Part shown: in pieces, positions 1,596-26,986 of the stretch
Position numbering within the stretch: the stretch's first letter is position 1
How the letters are laid out: the number at the start of each line of letters is the position of its first letter
IMG/VR virus record: IMGVR_UViG_2721755660_000006
Coordinates: 1-55,157 of that record
Length of the DNA stretch: 55,157 bases
Origin: a virus
Taxonomy: Duplodnaviria; Heunggongvirae; Uroviricota; Caudoviricetes
Direction: 5' to 3' (one strand)
Notes under the pieces: model-generated
Told to the model about the DNA's origin: nothing
What the model saw: only the letters and a program-made list of their open reading frames with translations
The model's database searches: none
Made by a program: the position numbers and the translations under genes

Positions 1596-4500
1596 TTATT
1601 TTTCGCTTCCGGTCAACTGCCGGACAAGCGCTTCAAGTTTAGTGATCCGCTCATCCATGACGGCAATGTTAGCTCGTAAGCTGGCGTTTTCTTCCTCCAG
1701 TTCGGTGACGCGGTTATCTGTTTCGCGTGCCACCTGAACAAGTAAACCAGTCACAGCCGCATAGTCAACATTAAGATAGCGCGTTTCTTCGCGTAGCTCG
1801 TTGCCGTCAATGGTCGGACCTTGTAACGCTTCACCGTAATGAGTAAACGATCCCACAGCTTCCGGAAGCGCCTCCATGACCTCCTGAGCGATAACGCCAG
1901 CGTAAGGCAGGCCGTTTTCCTTAAGCGTGTAGGTGTACCCGTTCATTTTACGGATTGCTTCAGTAGCATCGCCTATAACCTGAATGTTGTCCTTCAGGTC
2001 GCGGTCTGAAGACTGGTTTACTGTTACGCAGTTTACAGCACCATTAACCTGAAGTTGGCATGAATCATCAGTGTTTTGCTGTGCGTAAAAAAACCATGAA
2101 AGCGACGCGTTTGTGTCTGGATCTTTTATCTTGTACTCAAGTACAGTCGGACGGCTTGCTGCACCCCACAAATAAAGCTCGCCATTTCTTGCCGCTGAAT
2201 TTGCGACGGCTAAACTTACTTTTCTTGTGTAAGTATCAGCGAAAAACTCCGTAGATTTAAATTGCTGGTATCCAGTCCACCTTTGCGAAGATGCGTTAAG
2301 AGTAGCAATTTGACACCAGCCCTTATCTACTCCGGCCTCAAAACTTCTGGCATAGAATTTTGAATTACGTCCGGCGAATTGAGTTGCGTGGCTACCGCTA
2401 AATCCAACATGAAAACCACCATAAGTTAGGCTATTTTCAGGTGTATTAATGTTACCAGCAATAGGCTTAAATTTGCTTACGTTATCTGATTGTTGTGCGC
2501 TCCAGTCCTGATCTGAATATGTCGCAACCCCGTTTCCAGGCTGTATAGTTCCGTTTGATTGGATAACCTGGTAAGAATCACCATATTTATTGCGGTATGT
2601 ATCAGTGCAATAAAACCCTGTTGCACTCGATGTAAAATCAAGTAGGTTATTACTAATGCCGTAAGTGTCTAAATCAATACCATCAGAGGAATTAGTGATA
2701 CCCCATTTATAAGTCGGACTATCTGCTGTGTTAGCTGGCTTCCAGTCTGCTGTAGGTATTGTTACAGTACATCCAACCGTAACAGCGATGCGAATGGGGA
2801 AGGCATCACCGCGAACATAGATCGCGTTATGCTGATACTGCCCTTTATCAGTACCGCGAACGCAAAGTATCGCGTTTTCATTGTTTGCGTAACAGAAATA
2901 ATGACCAAATGCAGCCGCCCCCATATCTGACCAGCCACCATCACGTAACCATAAATGAATTGCGTTACAGTTAGGCTCTTCACTGCCAGATATTGACTTA
3001 GTTCTCATTGCAATTTCAACAAGGAAATCGCCGTTATAGTGTGAAGGATGGCTGACAATTACAGGGTAATATTTACCAGCTTCAGCACCAGTAGGGGCGT
3101 TGTAATCAACCCAATGCGCAATACCTGCAAACGGGATTTGCATATTGGTTTTAGTTTGTTCAAGGTTTGTAGGTACTGCAATTGCATTGACTTTCAGGTT
3201 AGGTACTTCTATTTCATCCCTTGCATAGTTGTAGCTCATTGAATTGCTTGTTTTCGTCCCGTCATATCCGTCTTTCTGAATACGCCAGTTACCACCATCA
3301 AAGACAAGGCTATAGTAAGGTGTATTTGATGGCCGATCCGTTTCGTTGAATCTGATGGTAGGATGAGCGCTTGATATTTCTACGGGATAATTAAAATTAG
3401 CTGTTAATCTTACACGCCTACCTATAAAATCACCGCTATTTAAAGAAAAGTCGCCGTCTTCGCTTAATCCTGCGTATTGGTTTTTATCTCCATTCTGTAG
3501 GTGAATTGTGGCCCATGATTTACCATCGCCACGGAATTCTGAATAAAAACGCGCTCGCGCTCTTTGTGCGCCTGATGCATCATTAAGGACGCTTTGTAAA
3601 ATACCGCCTGCCGTGGTTGCGACATCTGACGACCTAACAAGGTTAAGGTTTGTAAATTGCGGGCTATCAGTAAAATCAAGAGACTGAAATTTCTTCCATG
3701 CGGTCCACTCCCAACCAGAAGAGGAAGACTGAATGATGTGCTGGCGCATATAAAATGTACCAGTCGTGGCATTGTAAGGGAAATAAAGCTGCGTGCATCC
3801 TGCGTTACCGTTCGCATTATTTCTAATAACAAGCAATGCTCCCGCACTTGATACAGGATAACCGCGCGCAGTCGTGGCATTTGCGTTTAACCCCTGGTAA
3901 TAAAAACCGGAATACTCGCCTGTAAGCGTATTAATATCTGTGGAACCTAGATCTGATTTTTTCTCATACATAGCCTCAAGGTTAGTGCGAGCTTGTCCTG
4001 AATTAAGCCCGCCTGTACCACCATGTGCTACTTTTAACGGAACAAAAGCGCCTGCGGAATCATCATACACACCCCAATTAATAGTATCCCCTGTTCCACC
4101 ATCCCACAGAACAAATTTTTGTTTTCCTCCTGCGGCCCACAAAGCAGTCTCACTGCTACCCTGAACTAAGCGACTAACCTCATCTTTCCTTGCGTGGCGC
4201 GTCCATTGTGGGCCTGTTGATTCGCTCCACTTATAAGTGTAAGCACTTCCGGTCATCTGCCCTATAAAAAGGCCAGAAAATGCCGGGACACTGCCTAAAG
4301 TCGGGCAAATAAAGCCAGACAAATAGCGCTCACCTGAAGCAATAGAAGGCCACCCGGCAGCCCCTTCCATGATGCGCAGAAAGCCAAGATAACCTGATGG
4401 GTTTCCTGAAATATCCGGGCAATCTCTGGGGTTTGAGGAAAGACCAATGCTACTCCCGACAATACCTTGCGCCTGATTGCGATAGTTTAGCGCATCGGCT

Positions 4501-5255: not shown

Positions 5256-5504
5256 ATGAAAAACATGTTCAAAGTGGTCTTATTCGCTGCGGCTGTAGCT
5301 CTTACTGGTTGCTCTGTTGACAAAGAGGCTGCATTGCACAACCTGCCAAATAGCGGAGTAATCCCACAAGAAATTGTCTATGATGCTGACGGTCATCTTG
5401 TATATGACACTGAAAAACTTCCGTATACTGGACAATGGTGTCATGAACTCGATCACAACATGCGCCGCATCGGTAGCCCGTCGAATTGCGTAGCTAACTA
5501 CTAA
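5256..5504 (+). CDS. Small lipoprotein moron, possibly Cor-like superinfection exclusion
   Basis: 82 aa with lipobox (LTGC) after a hydrophobic signal; sits between tail fibre and J on the opposite strand; own upstream element and terminator. Confidence 0.6.
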   Translation: MKNMFKVVLFAAAVALTGCSVDKEAALHNLPNSGVIPQEIVYDADGHLVYDTEKLPYTGQWCHELDHNMRRIGSPSNCVANY

Positions 5505-11790: not shown

Positions 11791-11919
11791 TTTCTCACCT
11801 TCTGATTTTGTGATCTGCGTCACGCCAAATCATACCAAAATGGATTGATCGCGGTTTATACAATATGTATATTTTACTCAAACGGAAGCACAGTTAACAA
11901 AATGGCGCGGAGGTGTGAG

Positions 11920-12075
11920 ATGGCTGATAAGGTGTGGAGGTTGAAGGTATTTCTGACAGACGGAAGGGAAATGACTGTTGCCCTGTATAAAGATGAAGGC
12001 GATGCACTTACTGACGCGCTCTTACTCGCTGAAGACGAAAGAGTTTTGGGATACAGACTCGAACCTGTCAAATGA
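11920..12075 (+). CDS. Hypothetical small protein (moron island A, gene 1)
   Basis: 51-codon ORF with GGAGGTG Shine-Dalgarno; plus strand, antisense to the tail genes. Confidence 0.5.
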   Translation: MADKVWRLKVFLTDGREMTVALYKDEGDALTDALLLAEDERVLGYRLEPVK

Positions 12076-12087
12076 TGGTTTAACAAA

Positions 12088-12438
12088 ATGCAAAAATATA
12101 GTTTAGAAATATGGACTGATAAATGTGAATGGGAGCGCATGGGCCTGTTCGACACATACGTCGCAGCGCGTGATGAAGGTCGTGAGTTACTTCGCTGTTG
12201 GTCTAACGCTCGTGATTTTGATATTACTCCGGTGCAAGTGCCGGATAAGGTGGAAGAGATGAACCCGAAAGATATTAACTTTAACGTCAATGTTGAATTT
12301 GCAGACTCTATGGATCAGTCTTGCCCTGGTGAAATACACGCAAAAGGTTTCCCGGCAGACGATCCGCAAGCAAAACGCGAATACGAAAAAGCTGCGAAAG
12401 ACTTCTGCATAGATAACCTGGGCGCATTCGATAAATAA
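12088..12438 (+). CDS. Hypothetical protein (moron island A, gene 2)
   Basis: 116-aa ORF closely following gene 1 on the plus strand. Confidence 0.55.
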   Translation: MQKYSLEIWTDKCEWERMGLFDTYVAARDEGRELLRCWSNARDFDITPVQVPDKVEEMNPKDINFNVNVEFADSMDQSCPGEIHAKGFPADDPQAKREYEKAAKDFCIDNLGAFDK

Positions 12439-12447
12439 GGCGGCAAC

Positions 12448-12696
12448 ATGGGGCGGCGCAATCACGGTGATTATGTGTACACGTTGAAACAGGCCGCCCG
12501 CCTCATCGGTTATCATGAGCACGAATTTATTGATTTGCTGATTGAGCGCGGGATACTGTACCAGGTCTGTTTAACGCTGTACCCGAAAGCGAAATACCTA
12601 CAGGAAAAGTTATTCATCATCATGACGGATGAAAACCAGGTGAATCATTCATTCGTCACTGATAAGGGATTGACATACCTGAAGGGGGCGTTATGA
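12448..12696 (+). CDS. Hypothetical protein, possible HTH DNA-binding (moron island A, gene 3)
   Basis: 82-aa ORF 10 bp after gene 2; helix-turn-helix-like segment (TLKQAARLIGYHEHEFIDLLIERG); followed by a terminator. Confidence 0.5.
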   Translation: MGRRNHGDYVYTLKQAARLIGYHEHEFIDLLIERGILYQVCLTLYPKAKYLQEKLFIIMTDENQVNHSFVTDKGLTYLKGAL

Positions 12697-12796: not shown

Positions 12797-12997
12797 TTAT
12801 ACGCCATCAAGCAAAAATAATACTTCCCTACCCTCTCTCGATCTGCATCCGACATACCCGTCACCAACATCATGAAGATACCAGATCTCGCCATTATCAG
12901 CCTTTACAGTAAGATCGTTGATTTCATAGTCGTCAAACAATGTAAAAGCGCCAGTGCGGTCCACTACACAAATACCATACATATTAACCTCCATCAT
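12797..12997 (-). CDS. Hypothetical small protein downstream of gpM
   Basis: 66-aa ORF whose start overlaps the M stop region (coupling-like arrangement). Confidence 0.45.
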   Translation of the reverse strand: MMEVNMYGICVVDRTGAFTLFDDYEINDLTVKADNGEIWYLHDVGDGYVGCRSREGREVLFLLDGV

Positions 12998-13359
12998 CTG
13001 ACGACCTGCTCAAACGTTGCGTTTAGCGTGTACAAAGACCCGTCTTTAGTCATGCTCCATCGGCGGCAAACAAAAAGCCTTTGCACGTTATCCATCGACG
13101 GCGACCAGTAAAAAGCCTCGACAGCGCCGCGCGCCCTCAAGAATGCTTCCGCCTGGATCGCTACATTCCCACCATCGCCGCATCCTGCACTACTGCCTTT
13201 AAAAACCAGGGTGTAACTATCCAGTAATGTGTTAATCCCTTTCGCCTGGCGTTGTTCATACCCATCACCAAGTTTAATGACAGATACGTTTGGCTCCCTG
13301 GTCACGCTGTAGCTTCTTTGCGGCGTCCATCTGAAAACTTCCGGCATAAAACCCCCCAT
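12994..13359 (-). CDS. Minor tail protein (lambda gpM-like)
   Basis: 121 aa; aligns with lambda M (FRW, GDGY-QR, C-terminal FEQVV). Confidence 0.85.
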   Translation of the reverse strand: MGGFMPEVFRWTPQRSYSVTREPNVSVIKLGDGYEQRQAKGINTLLDSYTLVFKGSSAGCGDGGNVAIQAEAFLRARGAVEAFYWSPSMDNVQRLFVCRRWSMTKDGSLYTLNATFEQVVR

Positions 13360-13515
13360 AAGTTACATTTTGTATATATATTTACGCGCTTCTACGCGAA
13401 AAATGAGATCTTCATCACAATGATTATAGCTAGTTTACAAAATGGCTTCACATAGTACGAAACAAGATGTATACATAAAGCAAGAAGAAAGCAGTACCAA
13501 CGAAGGAGGCCCAAA

Positions 13516-13670
13516 ATGAAACGCTATGTAGTGGTAATGCTAAACAACGCATTCGAACAAGTGGAAATAGCAATCGTTAAGGGTTTCGACGACGCATTCA
13601 AATACGGTCAATTCATGATGAATGCAAAAGAAGATGAATACCGGGACTTCTTCCTGAAGGCACTTAACTA
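13516..13670 (+). CDS. Hypothetical small protein (moron island B, gene 1)
   Basis: 51-codon ORF (MKRYVVVMLNNAFEQ...DFFLKALN) with strong AAGGAGG Shine-Dalgarno; not in the supplied track (under 60 aa). Confidence 0.5.
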
Positions 13671-13688
13671 AGGATGATGGGGTGAGTT

Positions 13689-13943
13689 ATGAAACTGGTA
13701 GCGATTGACAAAAATCTGAAAGCACAGAAAAACGCGCCGGGACATGTAGTCAAAAAAGCAAAGGAACTTTTGAACGCGTTTTTAAACAAGAATGCGTCAC
13801 CCAAAAAATTGAAAGACGGTTACGGCTACGCCTTCCGCGCCAATTTAGACTGGCGAGTCTATAGCCAGGATCTGAAAGAGTGGGTGATTGTTGAACACCA
13901 TAAATTCAATGAATTGTCTGGCGTTCGCGGTTGCCATAAGTGA
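13689..13943 (+). CDS. Hypothetical protein, possibly RelE/ParE-like toxin fold (moron island B, gene 2)
   Basis: 84 aa; C-terminal KKLKDGYGYAFRANLDWRVYSQDLKEWVIVEHHK resembles the RelE/YafQ-type pattern by eye; unverified. Confidence 0.5.
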   Translation: MKLVAIDKNLKAQKNAPGHVVKKAKELLNAFLNKNASPKKLKDGYGYAFRANLDWRVYSQDLKEWVIVEHHKFNELSGVRGCHK

Positions 13944-14060
13944 GGTGGTATGGAGGACGATAAATTCACCTGGAGGGAGATCTGGAATATTTGGTTGGTG
14001 ATGTTTTCTCGCAGCTATATAGCCAGAAACGGAAGATTGTAATTTGCGGAGGAAAATAAA

Positions 14061-14237
14061 ATGAAAAACCAGGCAAATAAAAGCAATGTAAAACGTATAG
14101 CCTGGATCGTAAAATGGATGGATAGTAAAGGAGACACATATACTGAACCATTTTTCAAACATACTGATGCAGTATTTGCAAGAAGTGTAAGAGGCGGGAA
14201 AATTGAAAGAGGATATACAAGTTTTGAGAATAACTAA
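14061..14237 (+). CDS. Hypothetical small protein (moron island B, gene 3)
   Basis: 58-codon ORF with GGAGGA Shine-Dalgarno, followed by a terminator. Confidence 0.45.
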   Translation: MKNQANKSNVKRIAWIVKWMDSKGDTYTEPFFKHTDAVFARSVRGGKIERGYTSFENN

Positions 14238-14242
14238 AAGAT

Positions 14243-14266
14243 AACCCCGGCATTGTACCGGGGTTT
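14243..14266. terminator. Terminator hairpin ending moron island B
   Basis: CCCCGGCATTGTACCGGGG hairpin followed by a T-rich run; the tape measure gene begins beyond it. Confidence 0.6.
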
Positions 14267-14269
14267 CGT

Positions 14270-16618
14270 TTATTTGCGGCGCGGTTGCAATATTCCGCCT
14301 GGTCGTTGTGATTCCCTTGTTATCATTTTCATTGCTACACGTTCCATTGTCTGCTCAAGTCTGCGGCTGTCCTCGTCGCTAAATCCGTTTGTGGTCTGAA
14401 TGTTGATATTGACAGGCATACTAATGCCGCCGCCACCGCCAATGTCACGGCCAGGAATAACCCTGCCATTCTCGCCAGGGATCATATATTGATTTCCGTT
14501 AGATGTCTGGAATAGCTCCGGCCTGTTGTGTTCCCCTACACGGTACATATTGCCACCAATGACGCTACCACCATTAAAGCGACCGCCGCCAAAAATTGAC
14601 GTAGCCAGCGACATGATCGCAGTAAGTGCCGCAGAACCAGCCGCCGCCCAGCTACCGCCAGTTGCCGCCGCAGTTGCCGCCGCTGCCGGGGCCGCAGCCG
14701 CCGCAATGCTCCCCTGAGCGGCTACCGCGCTTGCCGTTGTGCTGGCCTGCGTGGCCTTGCTTTGTGTCTCCATCATGATCTGATCTGCTATCCAGTTGGC
14801 TGCTATGTCTGAGAGTCTGTTACCGATATTGCCGAGTATATTGCTTCCTAAGTTAGCAAAAACATCACTCAATGATTGAGTACCGTTTAACAGGCCAACA
14901 AGCGCATTGCTCATGCCACCTTTAAGGCCATTAACGCAATCACCGATCAGGCCGTTAGTGTCGCTTTGCGCTTGCCACTGCTCCCACTTCAGATCGCGGA
15001 TCTGTTGCTCATAGGCTAACAATTCCTGTTTCTGTTGCGCTTCAGTAACGCCCAGGTCGATAAGCATTTGCTTACGGACGGCCCATTCATTTTGTGCCTG
15101 CTGAATAGGGTCAACCTCGCCTTTAAGCTGATCCATCGGGCTTACTATTTGCGCCCATTTATCACGCAATTCATCTACCGGAATTTGCGCTAATTCTTCC
15201 TTCAGTTCCTTACCTATCCCTTTTTGCGCGGCGCGGTACTCAAGGAGAGTGATTTTACCCTGGGCGAATGCAGCATCAATGGCCTTGCCGTTCTCTAACG
15301 CTTTGCGCATAGCTGCGGCGTCTTTGTTGTACTGGTCGGATACTTTTATGCCTTCATCACCAAGCCGATCAGCTTCAGATTTCTTGTCTTTTTTCCCTTT
15401 TTTCCCTTTTTTCGGCTTGCCAACTGGCTGATCGAATCCGGTGATCTTGCCGTCATCAGCCTCGCCCTGTTTCTGCATAAACTCATCATAAACGGCGGTC
15501 GCATTTTTGATGTCATTTGCAAACGTCATGACCTTACCGACTGTAGGGCCGAATTTCTTTTCGTTGTTGCTGTTTAGCTCATTCTTGCGTTTATCAATGA
15601 TCTCCTTCATCCATTTGTAGCCATCCATTAGCGCTTTGATTGGCGTTACCATCCTGATAATCTCTTCCGCCACCTCACCAGCTTTAACAGCAACATCATC
15701 AAACATGTCGATAAACTCACTGCCAGCCGTTTTTAGTGTATTGAAACAGGTTGCGGCGAATTTTGCGCCTTTACCTAATCCCTCAACGCCACCAGTTATT
15801 AAGTCGATAGCTGACACAACGCCATCTGATATGCCGAAAAGATCATCAAGTTGTTCGACAAGTCCCATCACCTCGACTTTAAGCTCATTAAAAGCCATAC
15901 CGGACGTGCGCGGTAACTGTGCAAACTTCTCGTTTGTTTCCTGCGTAGCCGCCTGGATCGCGTTGAGCATCCTTTCAGCCGTGATCTTGCCGTCCAGCAT
16001 TTCGGCGCGGAACTGCCCCATAGATAACCCCATCTGTCGGGCCATTTCCTGTATGATTGTTGGGGTGTTATCACGTATTGAGTTGAACTCTTCCGCCTGC
16101 AACACGCCAGCATCAATAGCCTGGCGGAACTGAAGCATGGAGTTTGATAGTTGTTCCGCAGACACGCCGCCCAAGTTACCAAGTTTTTGCAGCGTGCTGA
16201 CCAGGTTGAGCACCTGGCCTTCTGTGGCGGATGTGTTTTTTAGCGATATAGCAAGACCTTGCCACAGGGCACCAGTATCCTTGAGGCTTTGGCCTGTTTC
16301 TTTTGATATTTCTTTCAGTCTGTTGAAAACCCGTTCCGTTGCCTCCGCTTCACCTGTAAGCAATTTGATTTTTACGCGAAGCATTTTTGCCTGTTCCGCC
16401 ATATCCATAAATTGGCGCACCGCTTCCGCAGCAAGTAGCAGATGGATGACCCTGGTCAGTGCTTTGATTGATGTCTTCAGCGTGTTTACCTGGCGGTCAG
16501 CACGTTTTGCGCCGCGCTCTATACGGTCAAAAGCCTGGTCGGCCTGGCGTTGTGCAACGAGAAGTTGACCAGTTTTAGCGTCAACCTCGTAATAAATTGT
16601 ACCTACACTGGTAGCCAT
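14270..16618 (-). CDS. Tail tape measure protein
   Basis: 782 aa, largely alpha-helical with Ala/Gly-rich hydrophobic C-terminal segment; positioned between chaperone and M as in lambda H. Confidence 0.8.
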   Translation of the reverse strand: MATSVGTIYYEVDAKTGQLLVAQRQADQAFDRIERGAKRADRQVNTLKTSIKALTRVIHLLLAAEAVRQFMDMAEQAKMLRVKIKLLTGEAEATERVFNRLKEISKETGQSLKDTGALWQGLAISLKNTSATEGQVLNLVSTLQKLGNLGGVSAEQLSNSMLQFRQAIDAGVLQAEEFNSIRDNTPTIIQEMARQMGLSMGQFRAEMLDGKITAERMLNAIQAATQETNEKFAQLPRTSGMAFNELKVEVMGLVEQLDDLFGISDGVVSAIDLITGGVEGLGKGAKFAATCFNTLKTAGSEFIDMFDDVAVKAGEVAEEIIRMVTPIKALMDGYKWMKEIIDKRKNELNSNNEKKFGPTVGKVMTFANDIKNATAVYDEFMQKQGEADDGKITGFDQPVGKPKKGKKGKKDKKSEADRLGDEGIKVSDQYNKDAAAMRKALENGKAIDAAFAQGKITLLEYRAAQKGIGKELKEELAQIPVDELRDKWAQIVSPMDQLKGEVDPIQQAQNEWAVRKQMLIDLGVTEAQQKQELLAYEQQIRDLKWEQWQAQSDTNGLIGDCVNGLKGGMSNALVGLLNGTQSLSDVFANLGSNILGNIGNRLSDIAANWIADQIMMETQSKATQASTTASAVAAQGSIAAAAAPAAAATAAATGGSWAAAGSAALTAIMSLATSIFGGGRFNGGSVIGGNMYRVGEHNRPELFQTSNGNQYMIPGENGRVIPGRDIGGGGGISMPVNINIQTTNGFSDEDSRRLEQTMERVAMKMITRESQRPGGILQPRRK

Positions 16619-16775: not shown

Positions 16776-16859
16776 ATGAAAAACGTAAACTACCGCCCCA
16801 ATGAACATGAACGCTATGCGGACTTCATCGAGGAAATGTTAAAAGCACTTAAAAAATAA
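16776..16859 (+). CDS. Hypothetical mini-protein (moron island C, 27 aa)
   Basis: GAAGGAGGA Shine-Dalgarno then ATG; sequence MKNVNYRPNEHERYADFIEEMLKALKK; C-terminus resembles island B gene 1. Confidence 0.35.
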   Translation: MKNVNYRPNEHERYADFIEEMLKALKK

Positions 16860-16927
16860 ACAATATGCGTGTATAACTAAGTTAAATGAAGCATTTAGCA
16901 AATTAGAATAAGCGGTAGGAGTTGATT

Positions 16928-17341
16928 ATGAAACGGTTAGCAAAAATGGCACTTACTGTGATTGCCGCACTCGCATTTAACGCGAACGCTAACGAGGCCA
17001 TAAGCATTAACTGTGAAGAAGTGGCAAACCATGTAGCCGCATATCACGACATGATCAAAAAAGAACCTGCCGCGCCAGCAATTCTTTTTAAGGCAATTGA
17101 TAAAAAATTTGAAGGTAAACCAGTTTATGCTCGTTGGTTTAATTATGGCCTTGTAAACGAGGCCGCTGTAGGCGTAGTCTTTGAAAATAATAGCGAAATA
17201 AAAAACAGGATAGCAAACGAGTGTAAGGCAAATAAAGTTGCTTTCGCGGAAAGAATTTTTAATGAAGGCGGCGCGGGTGCAAAAAATCACGCAATTGTAG
17301 ATTTGGGTAACGGTTTTATTGATATTGTTAGAATCAAATAA
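16928..17341 (+). CDS. Secreted/periplasmic hypothetical protein (moron island C)
   Basis: 137 aa with cleavable signal peptide (MKRLAKMALTVIAALAFNANA); TAGGAG Shine-Dalgarno; terminator follows. Confidence 0.65.
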   Translation: MKRLAKMALTVIAALAFNANANEAISINCEEVANHVAAYHDMIKKEPAAPAILFKAIDKKFEGKPVYARWFNYGLVNEAAVGVVFENNSEIKNRIANECKANKVAFAERIFNEGGAGAKNHAIVDLGNGFIDIVRIK

Positions 17342-24060: not shown

Positions 24061-25444
24061 TATCGCGGCGGGAGGTATTCGCCTGATTATTTTCTTCACC
24101 TTCATCATCGTTTTCCTCGTCTTCCAGTTCTACTTCACTAGCTGGGCCATCGTATCCGGCAGCTTCGCGGATCTCGTCACCGCTAAATATTTCCTCACCA
24201 GTAGCAAGACAAGCCTGATTGATTTGCGCCATTTTGTGTGCCGCTTCCAGTAGTTCGGCTTTTGTCATGGCGTTAAGGTCATCCCATAAAACTGATACAT
24301 CGACTGGCATACTGATAAGGCGGAGATCTGCCATCTTGCGGAATAGTTCCTCAAGCTCGCCTCCAATTTCCTCGCGGCGGGTCATACAGCGATTATTGAA
24401 GTAGCGTAGGTCTTCAGTTGATGCGCGTTCGCCCTGCTGATTCCCAACCAGGATACGCGTCGGGATGTCGATACCAGCGGCGGCAGTTTGCAGGTTGACG
24501 TCATAGGTTGCAGATGGATCGGCTACGGCAGTTACCAGCGGGCTAACACTTGCCCCTTGTAATGCCATCATCACATCATTACCCCTATTCATTTCTGCTG
24601 CTGCCTCGTTGAATTTCTCGCGTAGCTCTGTAACGTCGCAATCGTATGTTGCAGCCAGGGAACGGAAATCAATCTCTTTATCGAACGAGATAGCCAGTTG
24701 ACGAGCGGCATTTTTCAGGAATGACTCACCGCTACCGCCTTCCACTTTCTCCAGCGAAACGAAAGCGTTATAGGACGGCTCAAGGAAAGCGATAGCATCA
24801 TCAGAATAATCACCAAATATAAAGATCCTGTCTGGATGAATCTTTCTTGCTATGGTTTTACTGTTGATCCGCTCCTTGTATTCCCACCATGTCGGAAGGC
24901 CATAGTTTTCTTTATCCTGGTTTTCTTCGAAGTCCTTCGGCGTAAGAGCGCCAGCCCACACAGGGGTGAATTTGGCAATGCCTACGCCTTTTGTTACTGG
25001 CTGATCCCACGGCTGGTTATCTCTGACATGAATTAACAGGCCCGCATAACGACCGATGAGGCGGCGGCGATCGCATTCAGCTATGACGCGCCAGAAACGA
25101 TTATCAAATTGCTTTTTAATTTCTCTTTCCCACGGCGTTTCCGTTTCTGCTTTCTCGTCTTCCGTACCTTCAATCAGCGTTGGCCTGGTGCGCCAGCACG
25201 TAGTAACGATCTTCTCAATAGCACCGTGAGCGATACCACCGCGACGATACAGCTTGTAAAGATCTTCATAGGTGATTTCTTCTTTGAATCCGTATTCACT
25301 CCACGCAGCGTCACGTTTTGCATCAATACCCATTGAGAATGGGTTAGCGGCTGCATAGCGGGCAAAGGCCGCCTGGCGTTGTGACAAGGCAGCATTAACC
25401 GCCAATTCTAAATTGGATGGCATAATGTTTACTCCTGAATACAT
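24050..25444 (-). CDS. Portal protein
   Basis: 464 aa with acidic C-terminal tail, immediately downstream of the large terminase. Confidence 0.75.
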   Translation of the reverse strand: MYSGVNIMPSNLELAVNAALSQRQAAFARYAAANPFSMGIDAKRDAAWSEYGFKEEITYEDLYKLYRRGGIAHGAIEKIVTTCWRTRPTLIEGTEDEKAETETPWEREIKKQFDNRFWRVIAECDRRRLIGRYAGLLIHVRDNQPWDQPVTKGVGIAKFTPVWAGALTPKDFEENQDKENYGLPTWWEYKERINSKTIARKIHPDRIFIFGDYSDDAIAFLEPSYNAFVSLEKVEGGSGESFLKNAARQLAISFDKEIDFRSLAATYDCDVTELREKFNEAAAEMNRGNDVMMALQGASVSPLVTAVADPSATYDVNLQTAAAGIDIPTRILVGNQQGERASTEDLRYFNNRCMTRREEIGGELEELFRKMADLRLISMPVDVSVLWDDLNAMTKAELLEAAHKMAQINQACLATGEEIFSGDEIREAAGYDGPASEVELEDEENDDEGEENNQANTSRRDNAI

Positions 25445-25501
25445 GTTTACGCGTTGCTACGCGAAAAATAGAAAAATTCGTGAGGGGTTGTGAGGCAGAT
25501 T

Positions 25502-26986
25502 TTAAAATCCGCGCAGGCGCTTAGGTAACATGAGGCCTATTGCCTGTGGCTGGCTTAATTCAGTGATACCCCACACCATTGCGTCGAGGCGGTCCGGGGA
25601 TTTTTTAGCGGTAGCTGGCACGTATTCCATCATTTGATTTTCCAGCGTGTACAGGCTGCCTGTGTGGGCCACCCTTCCTTGTGCATACAGTGCCGATATT
25701 GGCTCGGCTCGGGCGAATTTACCCTTGCTTGCGTGCACCTTAACAATGCGGCCTTTGAATCCGGCATTACGTAGCGTGGCCTCCGCCATTTCGCCGCCCT
25801 GGTTGGTTTCGATAACTATCGCGTCAGCTTCATGGATGTTGTAGGCGTTCATTGATGCTTGCGCCCAGTCGTTAGGAGACATGCGGCCTGAGTAGTCACC
25901 GTCTACAGAATACTGAGCGTGCTTGCCGCCACCATAAGCGGAACATGCCACGATCCCGGTTTCGTCAGACTCATCAGATGATGTTGTTGCCGGGTCGATG
26001 GCTATCACCGTGCGGATCCTGTCCTGCGTTATCTGCATCCGGTGAGCGGCGGTTATCATCGCTTCAGTCCATAATGCGCCTTCTTCGTCGAATTTACGCG
26101 GGCGCTGCATGTACTGCGCCTCGAATGACCTGCGGTGTGCTTTCAGTCCGGCTTCATGGCTGTCATTGTGCTTTTTAGGCCATAGCCAGCCGTCCGGCAG
26201 GTTGTGAGCAATAGGAATAGCGAATTCGTTTTCCGGGTACAGATCCCAATAGTCGATGCTATTGTCGATCTTCACTGGCAGGTTAAGGTGATACCATTTC
26301 TCACCACTGCCACCGCGTAACAGGTAGCCGGACAAATCATCGTAGTGGATACGCTGCATAATGACGATAACAGGCGTCTCCTGTACGGCAAGACGTGAAG
26401 CGAGCGTGTCGTTGTAGTTGTTCTTTACCTTATCCCGCATCACATCAGAGTAAGCGTCAGCGGGCTTTAATGGGTCATCAATAATTAACGCGCCGTTGAA
26501 GCCTGGCTCCATGTAACCAGCACGAAAACCCGTGATCTGGCCGTGTGACGATGCGGCATATATCCCGCCGCCCTGTTCCGTCCACCACATTGATTTGGAG
26601 TTGGCATCATTGCGGATCCTCATAGGCCACATCGCTTGATACTCTGGCGAGCAAATCATATTTCTGACTGTCGATGAATTGAGTAATGCGAGGTTGTCGG
26701 AATAGGAGACATGAAGAAAACGCGTGCGGGGATTTATTGCGAGGGACCGCGCCATCATATTGATAGTTGCGATCATGGTCTTGCCGTACCCTGGGGGGAT
26801 GTTAATGATGAGGCGGGTAATCTCACCATTAATAACGCGTTGCAGTGCATCGCGGATAGCTATGTGATGGCCTGAGACAAACATCTTCGTACCGTTTGCT
26901 TGCTTGTAGAAATAGCGGTTGAAGAACAGGCCATCGTTTTCACATTTTGACTGAATAACCCTTTCTTTGATGGATAACATAATCAC
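25502..26986 (-). CDS. Terminase large subunit
   Basis: 494 aa; Walker A-like PPGYGKT, Walker B-like LIIDDP, C-terminal nuclease-like region. Confidence 0.9.
   Translation of the reverse strand: MIMLSIKERVIQSKCENDGLFFNRYFYKQANGTKMFVSGHHIAIRDALQRVINGEITRLIINIPPGYGKTMIATINMMARSLAINPRTRFLHVSYSDNLALLNSSTVRNMICSPEYQAMWPMRIRNDANSKSMWWTEQGGGIYAASSHGQITGFRAGYMEPGFNGALIIDDPLKPADAYSDVMRDKVKNNYNDTLASRLAVQETPVIVIMQRIHYDDLSGYLLRGGSGEKWYHLNLPVKIDNSIDYWDLYPENEFAIPIAHNLPDGWLWPKKHNDSHEAGLKAHRRSFEAQYMQRPRKFDEEGALWTEAMITAAHRMQITQDRIRTVIAIDPATTSSDESDETGIVACSAYGGGKHAQYSVDGDYSGRMSPNDWAQASMNAYNIHEADAIVIETNQGGEMAEATLRNAGFKGRIVKVHASKGKFARAEPISALYAQGRVAHTGSLYTLENQMMEYVPATAKKSPDRLDAMVWGITELSQPQAIGLMLPKRLRGF

Follow-up and report, generated by a model that had tools for sequence, protein, structure and literature searches.

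A plus-strand cassette in the tail gene region of an mEpimmI-group coliphage carries a predicted RelE/ParE-superfamily protein and is probably a moron

We analysed a window of 55,157 nucleotides (nt), IMG/VR virus record IMGVR_UViG_2721755660_000006, which covers essentially the entire genome of a temperate mEpimmI-group coliphage. The structural genes of this phage are on the minus strand, and between two of them, those for a gpM-like minor tail protein and for the tape measure protein, positions 13348-14269 form a plus-strand, antisense cassette with four small open reading frames (ORFs), ORF51, ORF84, ORF30 and ORF58 (Table 1). We conclude that this cassette is, with high probability, an autonomous moron carrying a protein of the RelE/ParE toxin superfamily, ORF84. 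We further infer, as a tentative reading that falls somewhat short of probable, that ORF84 acts as a growth-inhibiting effector and that ORF51 tempers it.

Morons are recognised as extra DNA with a promoter and a terminator of its own and a deviating base composition (PMC3594210). For the comparison we used IMG/VR contigs with a relative of gpM, taking loci with at least 80% gpM identity as the group and those with 64-68% identity as the outgroup. ORF84 lay between the tape measure gene and gpM in all 31 group loci (gap of 681-1393 nt) and in none of the 49 outgroup loci; in 18 of the latter the tape measure gene abutted gpM directly (gap of -1 to 2 nt). The original prediction, made from the sequence of the window, had described a moron island here, and this description was borne out: the cassette is extra DNA between two genes relative to related phages, it ends in its own terminator, its GC content (0.37-0.44) is lower than that of the flanking tail genes (0.48-0.60), and both the GC and the AT (purine) skews flip to the plus strand within it. 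As for a promoter of its own, the leader contains a conserved promoter-like arrangement, TTCACA-17-TATACA, on which a consensus scan made no call. Likewise, the gene 15 moron of phage HK97 is extra DNA beside the tape measure gene in the tail operon; it brings a promoter and a terminator of its own and differs in GC content (PMC3594210). Its product, gp15, is an inner-membrane superinfection-exclusion protein. The mEpimmI cassette differs from HK97 gene 15 in being antisense to the tail genes, in comprising several genes and in being fixed in the whole mEpimmI group, unlike classical morons, which are sporadic.

ORF51, ORF84, ORF30 and ORF58 are real genes under purifying selection and not chance ORFs, because their median pairwise dN/dS values across 59 related loci were 0.04, 0.07, 0.06 and 0.11, respectively. 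ORF51 and ORF84, separated by 17 nt, constitute the constant core of the cassette and occur together in 56 of the 59 loci; in 11 loci these two genes alone make up the island. ORF30 and ORF58 are interchangeable cargo, the 3' part being the only portion of the cassette that varies: the cargo families counted in these loci were ORF30 (30 loci), ORF58 (29), an acidic protein of 59-70 amino acids (aa; 28), a 49-aa protein (10), a 95-aa membrane protein (8) and an HNH endonuclease (2), together with zinc-ribbon proteins in phage mEp021. None of the four cassette proteins had a match in PADLOC or NCBIfam; ORF30 had no family match in PHROG either, and ORF58 gave sub-threshold matches only in Pfam and PHROG. 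The three ORFs listed at first, all said to have strong ribosome-binding sites, are present with some amendments: ORF51 ends, with its stop codon, at 13671 and not at 13670, a fourth gene (ORF30) had been overlooked, and strong sites precede ORF51 (AAGGAGG) and ORF58 (GGAGGA), ORF84 having only the weaker GGGGTGAG.

The acidic 59-70-aa cargo protein (MMWNMDEEK...ENDQED), located at positions 4252-4464 of locus L009 and in 27 other loci and absent from the window, is very acidic, often lies 3' of ORF84 and sometimes overlaps the stop codon of ORF84 by 4 nt; a role as an alternative neutraliser or as a DNA mimic is possible. Two kinships among the small genes were considered and rejected. ORF51 is not a paralogue of ORF58 or of the 51-aa gene that opens the neighbouring island (11920-12075), since BLASTP found nothing and hhalign gave probabilities below 1%; and the repeat GGAGGAnAAnAAAATGAAAAAC, found at 14048, 16763 and 5243, does not mark paralogous genes, the ORFs downstream of it being unrelated (among them a 27-aa ORF and the Lpp lipoprotein).

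Table 1. Features of the cassette and its flanks in the window
Feature	Position	Strand	Evidence and remarks
gpM-like minor tail protein, left flank	12994..13347	-	PF05939, E 3e-28
Divergent intergenic leader between gpM and the cassette, 168 nt	13348..13515	.	45 unique sequences of related loci
24-nt element TTTACGCGNTNCTACGCGAAAAAT	13381..13404 and 25446..25469	-	two exact matches, 0 expected in 100 shuffles
Candidate -10 box for gpM transcription, TATAAT	13423..13428	-	invariant in 45 unique leaders; no good -35 box
Candidate sigma-70 promoter of the cassette	13447..13475	+	-35 TTCACA 13447-13452, 17-nt spacer, -10 TATACA 13470-13475
ORF51, 51 aa, acidic, isoelectric point (pI) 5.1	13516..13671 (with stop)	+	ribosome-binding site AAGGAGG 13503-13509; phrog_29810, function unknown
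ORF84, 84 aa, basic, pI 9.9, predicted RelE/ParE-superfamily fold	13689..13943	+	Pfam PF24732 ParE_like; weaker GGGGTGAG 13679-13686
ORF30, 30 aa, conserved, variable cargo	13950..14042	+	30 related islands; dN/dS 0.06
ORF58, 58 aa, basic, variable cargo	14061..14237	+	ribosome-binding site GGAGGA 14048-14053; 29 islands; dN/dS 0.11
Bidirectional intrinsic-terminator hairpin, GC-rich, abutting the tape measure stop codon	14243..14265	both	terminator scan and RNA folding
Tape measure protein, right flank	14270..16618	-	PF20155, E 4e-48

The leader is highly conserved among the 45 unique sequences compared, which consist of long invariant blocks with variable spacers between them. The invariant blocks include GGCTTCAC and TGTATA, split by a variable 17-nt spacer, and the hexamers TTCACA and TATACA are conserved throughout, so that TTCACA-17-TATACA is a candidate sigma-70-like promoter of the plus strand. 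The invariant TATAAT on the other strand may serve as the -10 box for gpM transcription. Because it sits back-to-back with the plus-strand candidate, a divergent promoter region within the tail operon is suggested. In one locus (L049; gpM start at 1668, ORF51 at 2327) an insertion of ~490 nt separates gpM from ORF51, giving a leader of 664 nt versus ~175 nt. At the other end of the cassette, the terminator hairpin had a predicted RNA folding energy of -15.3 kcal/mol when read from the plus strand (z -2.8 relative to shuffled sequence) and of -17.5 kcal/mol from the minus strand (z -4.1); the terminator had been placed at 14243-14266 on first inspection, and it is indeed there, as a hairpin ending at 14265 that scores on both strands. 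Each island examined closes with a hairpin beside the tape measure stop codon, and in L009 and mEp021 the hairpin at this same spot is of unrelated sequence, which argues for a functional constraint on the terminator. A search of Rfam with positions 12900-14400 gave a single sub-threshold match to a small nucleolar RNA, which is noise.

The ORF84 product matched the Pfam family PF24732 (ParE_like) over residues 19-74 with 32.1 bits (E 1.2e-7), the gathering score of the family being 24.4 bits, and also phrog_1525, of unknown function. Close homologues were found in this phage group only. An exhaustive hidden Markov model (HMM) search and a second profile search recovered remote members with 22-49% identity, all belonging to PF24732, and each of the 23 homologues collected matched this family; a scan of genome contigs gave a single weak partial match only. 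These remote homologues were needed for a usable structural model: an earlier AlphaFold2 run with 11 close homologues was poor, with a predicted local distance difference test (pLDDT) value of 58, and the 23-sequence alignment gave a pLDDT of 86.2 and a predicted template modelling (TM) score of 0.74. The model begins at the N-terminus with a beta-hairpin, goes on with a long helix and three antiparallel strands, and closes with a short C-terminal helix. In a Foldseek search against solved structures YoeB came first (probability 0.98, TM-score 0.49) and most of the next matches were YafQ, HigB or ParE, so that the nearest solved structures were nearly all RelE/HigB/YafQ/YoeB/ParE toxins; in a viral structure library the sole good matches came from two jumbo phages, fHe-Yen9-04 and RaK2, whose matching proteins are labelled 'ParE-like toxin domain' (TM-score 0.70-0.78). 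As modelled, ORF84 thus belongs by its fold to the RelE/ParE toxin superfamily.

A resemblance to RelE/YafQ-type mRNA interferases had been noticed by eye in the original prediction, which proposed a structure prediction as the check. The superfamily is confirmed by PF24732, by the AlphaFold2 model and by its RelE/ParE-type fold neighbours; the ribonuclease (RNase) and gyrase types are not separable by sequence. The peptide that was taken for the end of the product (KKLKDGYGY...VEHHK) corresponds instead to residues 39-72, after which the protein continues with FNELSGVRGCHK. Note that the RelE/ParE-like call is not new, as databases already label the protein by homology: RefSeq names the homologues in E. 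coli prophages 'ParE family toxin-like protein', UniRef does likewise, and for related phage genes some depositors chose 'YafQ-like ribonuclease toxin' or 'HigB-like protein'. A search of the literature found no paper naming PF24732, and the family is uncharacterised.

Across the 23-sequence alignment K40, L41 and R56 are the only invariant residues; H70, which immediately follows the last strand, occurs in 20 of the 23 sequences, and all of them have Tyr or Phe at position 73. In alignments that are non-significant, W55-R56 fell on Y60-R61 of RelE, the beta3 segment 'WR(V/L)' on 'YRLVY' of RelE, and E-x-x-(Y/F)73-N74 on E-D-Y91-H92 of HigB. A putative active constellation would comprise Arg56 in beta3, His70 after beta4, the aromatic residue at 73 and a basic residue at 48 or 50. 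RNase-type structures scored slightly above ParE structures with the ORF84 model, and we lean towards an mRNA-interferase-type mechanism. With the RelE, HigB, YafQ and YoeB toxins ORF84 shares a small alpha/beta fold with a three-stranded antiparallel sheet, a length of ~85-95 aa and a strongly basic character. These toxins usually have a two-helix hairpin, in place of which the ORF84 model has the N-terminal beta-hairpin and one long helix, and no partner of the RelB, HigA, DinJ or YefM type was recognisable beside ORF84 in Pfam and PDB searches.

The reading that we favour for the cassette as a whole would run as follows. Host RNA polymerase probably transcribes it from the sigma-70-like promoter at ~13447-13475, and transcription would stop at the hairpin at 14243-14265. 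The ORF84 product would be a growth-inhibiting effector, most probably a translation-linked mRNA endonuclease of the RelE/HigB/YafQ/YoeB kind, which ORF51 would temper or neutralise. The prophage would thereby carry a toxin-antitoxin-like module for phage exclusion or prophage retention. In favour of such a pair, a small acidic protein is followed by a small basic one, the two are found together in nearly all loci and form the smallest version of the island, and both are under purifying selection. ORF51 is an orphan confined to this phage group and a possible partner or neutraliser of ORF84.

Several results weigh against this reading. No match to ORF51 was found in Pfam, NCBIfam, PADLOC or PDB by sequence and profile searches, and none to an antitoxin or DNA-binding family. 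ORF51 is cleanly absent from three of the 59 loci (L007, an E. coli chromosome, GCA_964047275.1; L046 and L053, viral contigs of 53 and 57 kb), in which ORF84 is intact and the conserved leader runs directly into it (positions 3834-4000 in L007); the L007 ORF84 is identical to the allele that adjoins ORF51 in five other loci. ORF51 is far more conserved than ORF84 (pN/pS 0.07 versus 0.17-0.19), the divergences of the two are uncorrelated (r 0.18 and -0.02), and one identical ORF51 protein occurs beside ORF84 alleles that are 58-100% identical. The consensus scan, which demands T at the last -10 position, called no plus-strand promoter in the leader, and 13345-13520 contains a single inverted repeat, an AT palindrome (13372-13385) that lies apart from the candidate promoter, and thus no operator in the style of toxin-antitoxin systems. 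Hence neither the covarying antitoxin of a known family nor the palindromic operator of a type II toxin-antitoxin system was found, and the case for ORF51, ORF30 or ORF58 as antitoxins is not convincing.

Other points against it concern ORF84 and its family. There was no significant sequence link between ORF84 and the canonical RelE, HigB, YafQ, YoeB and ParE families: phmmer and profile HMM searches of PDB sequences returned nothing significant (the best relevant match was HigB, E 1.2), no member of the ORF84 alignment matched any canonical toxin family, the PF05016-type ParE included, even at E <=10, and hhalign with E. coli RelE, using an approximate RelE sequence, gave a probability of 0.4%. 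The contexts of PF24732 members are very diverse, from the mEpimmI tail operon to virulent jumbo phages of ~350 kb (121Q, PBECO4, K64-1, RaK2 and fHe-Yen9-04) and other lytic phages; for a strictly lytic phage, addiction would hardly make sense. In the jumbo phages, and on a 101-kb contig, these genes sit in arrays of small early-type genes. The remote members share no common partner and are without ORF51. In an Enterobacter genomic island (L013, 2397-3213) and in Serratia phage OS31 (L153, 668-1701) the PF24732 gene overlaps the end of a ParB-like gene, which might be a recurrent alternative partner with a different functional coupling.

Much of this evidence would also suit another arrangement, on balance rather unlikely, in which ORF84 is a RelE-fold nuclease or inhibitor without a dedicated antitoxin, serving host take-over, mRNA turnover or counter-defence in the course of infection, and ORF51 is an unrelated co-transcribed small protein. 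It agrees with the three natural islands that keep an intact ORF84 without ORF51, with the lack of covariation, with an ORF51 without antitoxin features and a leader without an operator, and with a family common among the early-type genes of virulent jumbo and other lytic phages. Its precedent is RegB of T4, a phage-encoded RNase with a RelE/YoeB-like structure and no known antitoxin (PMC3014915). RegB is, however, about twice as long as ORF84, is an early gene of a virulent phage and was not among the structural neighbours in the fold search. Moreover, ORF51 plus ORF84 is the minimal and nearly universal unit of the cassette, a sigma-70-like promoter and a terminator of its own are typical of prophage-expressed genes (PMC3594210), and an unneutralised toxin in a temperate phage cassette would be costly.

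It is improbable that ORF84 poisons DNA gyrase in the manner of ParE and cleaves no mRNA, in a moron and partner architecture otherwise as in the favoured reading. The Pfam name ParE_like and the RefSeq name of the homologues speak for it. ParE proteins, too, commonly have a His residue behind the last strand. That YoeB and YafQ were the best Foldseek matches, and that some depositors chose YafQ-like or HigB-like labels, speaks against it, neither point being decisive. The ParE gyrase poisons, including the prophage-borne PaaR2-PaaA2-ParE2 of E. coli O157:H7, had lower structural scores with ORF84 than the RNase members; that system also has a third regulator gene, which the mEpimmI cassette lacks, ORF51 being here the putative partner.

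A non-toxic derivative, in which ORF84 has kept the fold and lost the killing and serves as a decoy for host antitoxins or toxins or as a ribosome or nucleic-acid binder, carries a similarly low probability. Such a protein would account for the tolerance of lysogens and phages to the loss of ORF51, for the small number of family-invariant residues and for the lack of a significant match to any catalytically defined family. The strong purifying selection argues against it, as do the basic surface and the conserved Arg, His and aromatic residues at positions that would be equivalent to the RNase active site in the non-significant alignments. In a metagenomic viral contig (L066, 2482-2510) ORF84 has lost one base in an A-run at codon 9 and meets a stop at codon 10; this may be either a pseudogene, which would fit occasional counter-selection and so a toxic protein, or a homopolymer sequencing error, the two being equally possible. 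Finally, the view that these are chance ORFs of a long non-coding stretch within the tail operon, to which their very short length and their 'hypothetical' status in public records might point, deserves practically no credence, being refuted by the dN/dS of 0.04-0.11 for all four ORFs over dozens of loci and by the confident AlphaFold2 model, with the family-level HMM matches and the switch of purine and GC skew to the plus strand on the same side.

A broader and speculative proposal, which we hold to be doubtful, is that PF24732 comprises phage-centred RelE-fold effectors independent of a classical antitoxin, like RegB, which in virulent jumbo phages and temperate phages would reprogram or shut host translation or counter defence, and which in the mEpimmI group would have been fixed in an antisense cassette with a new 51-aa modulator unrelated to known antitoxins.

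The original prediction had also tied to the island a 24-bp element preceding it that recurs at 25446. The recurrence is exact, and the similarity of the two copies extends to 34 nt at 85% identity (13371-13404 and 25436-25469). The second copy is situated in the short terL-portal gap, bounded by the terL stop codon (25502) and the portal start codon (25423). In mEp021, mEp010 and MagusPhagus both copies are conserved together with ~10 more similar bases. Because both sites are conserved and there is no plus-strand island in the terL-portal gap, we assign the element to the late minus-strand genes, upstream of gpM and portal, and not to the cassette. Read on the minus strand, both copies give AUUUUUCGCGUAG-N-A-N-CGCGUAAA, a 5-bp hairpin closed by U.G in one copy and by U-A in the other, a change on one side only that preserves the pair; on folding, its stability was not unusual. 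IMG/VR held 78 exact copies, often two per contig, and every contig that could be cross-checked against the ORF84 and gpM locus sets was of mEpimmI type. The element is possibly a signal for late-mRNA processing or translation, or a late-promoter signal.

Over positions 13300-14330 the identity was 99.9% with Escherichia phage MagusPhagus and 80-87% with mEp010, mEp044, mEp013, mEp554, mEp515 and mEp021. Because MagusPhagus matches the window at 99.9% identity in the cassette and at only 90% at the terL-portal junction (25300-25620), mosaic recombination among members of the mEpimmI group is indicated. The true start of gpM is the second ATG, at 13347, since its relatives begin with MPEVF and have no upstream ATG. 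In deposited phage records the genes between gpM and the tape measure gene are all annotated 'hypothetical protein', and the paper on the mEpimmI group does not discuss them (PMC11893012).

Three further plus-strand cassettes break up the minus-strand tail module. The one at 11845-12696, between gpL and gpM, holds ORFs of 51, 116 and 82 aa, the last with a KilAC/ANT-like domain (E 1.8e-6). That at 5256-5504 consists of a lipoprotein gene whose product has a lipobox (LTGC) and is probably the Lpp exclusion protein described earlier (PMC11893012), and that at 16776-17341, after the tape measure gene, encodes a product with a signal peptide.

Prophages of the mEpimmI group were present in ~0.6% of complete E. 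coli genomes (34 of 5426) and have been described as common in the human gut (PMC11893012). If ORF84 is active, these prophages would carry a constitutive RelE/ParE-type effector, which could influence phage exclusion, prophage retention and the stress physiology of the lysogen. The cassette is a fixed site for the exchange of accessory genes inside the tail operon, with downstream cargo that differs among phages. For PF24732, which is abundant in phages, strictly lytic ones included, the label 'toxin' comes from homology only. The lineage without ORF51 is a natural knockout and offers a ready-made test of the need for an antitoxin, and these natural variants, together with the phage-centred distribution of PF24732, are points worth pursuing.

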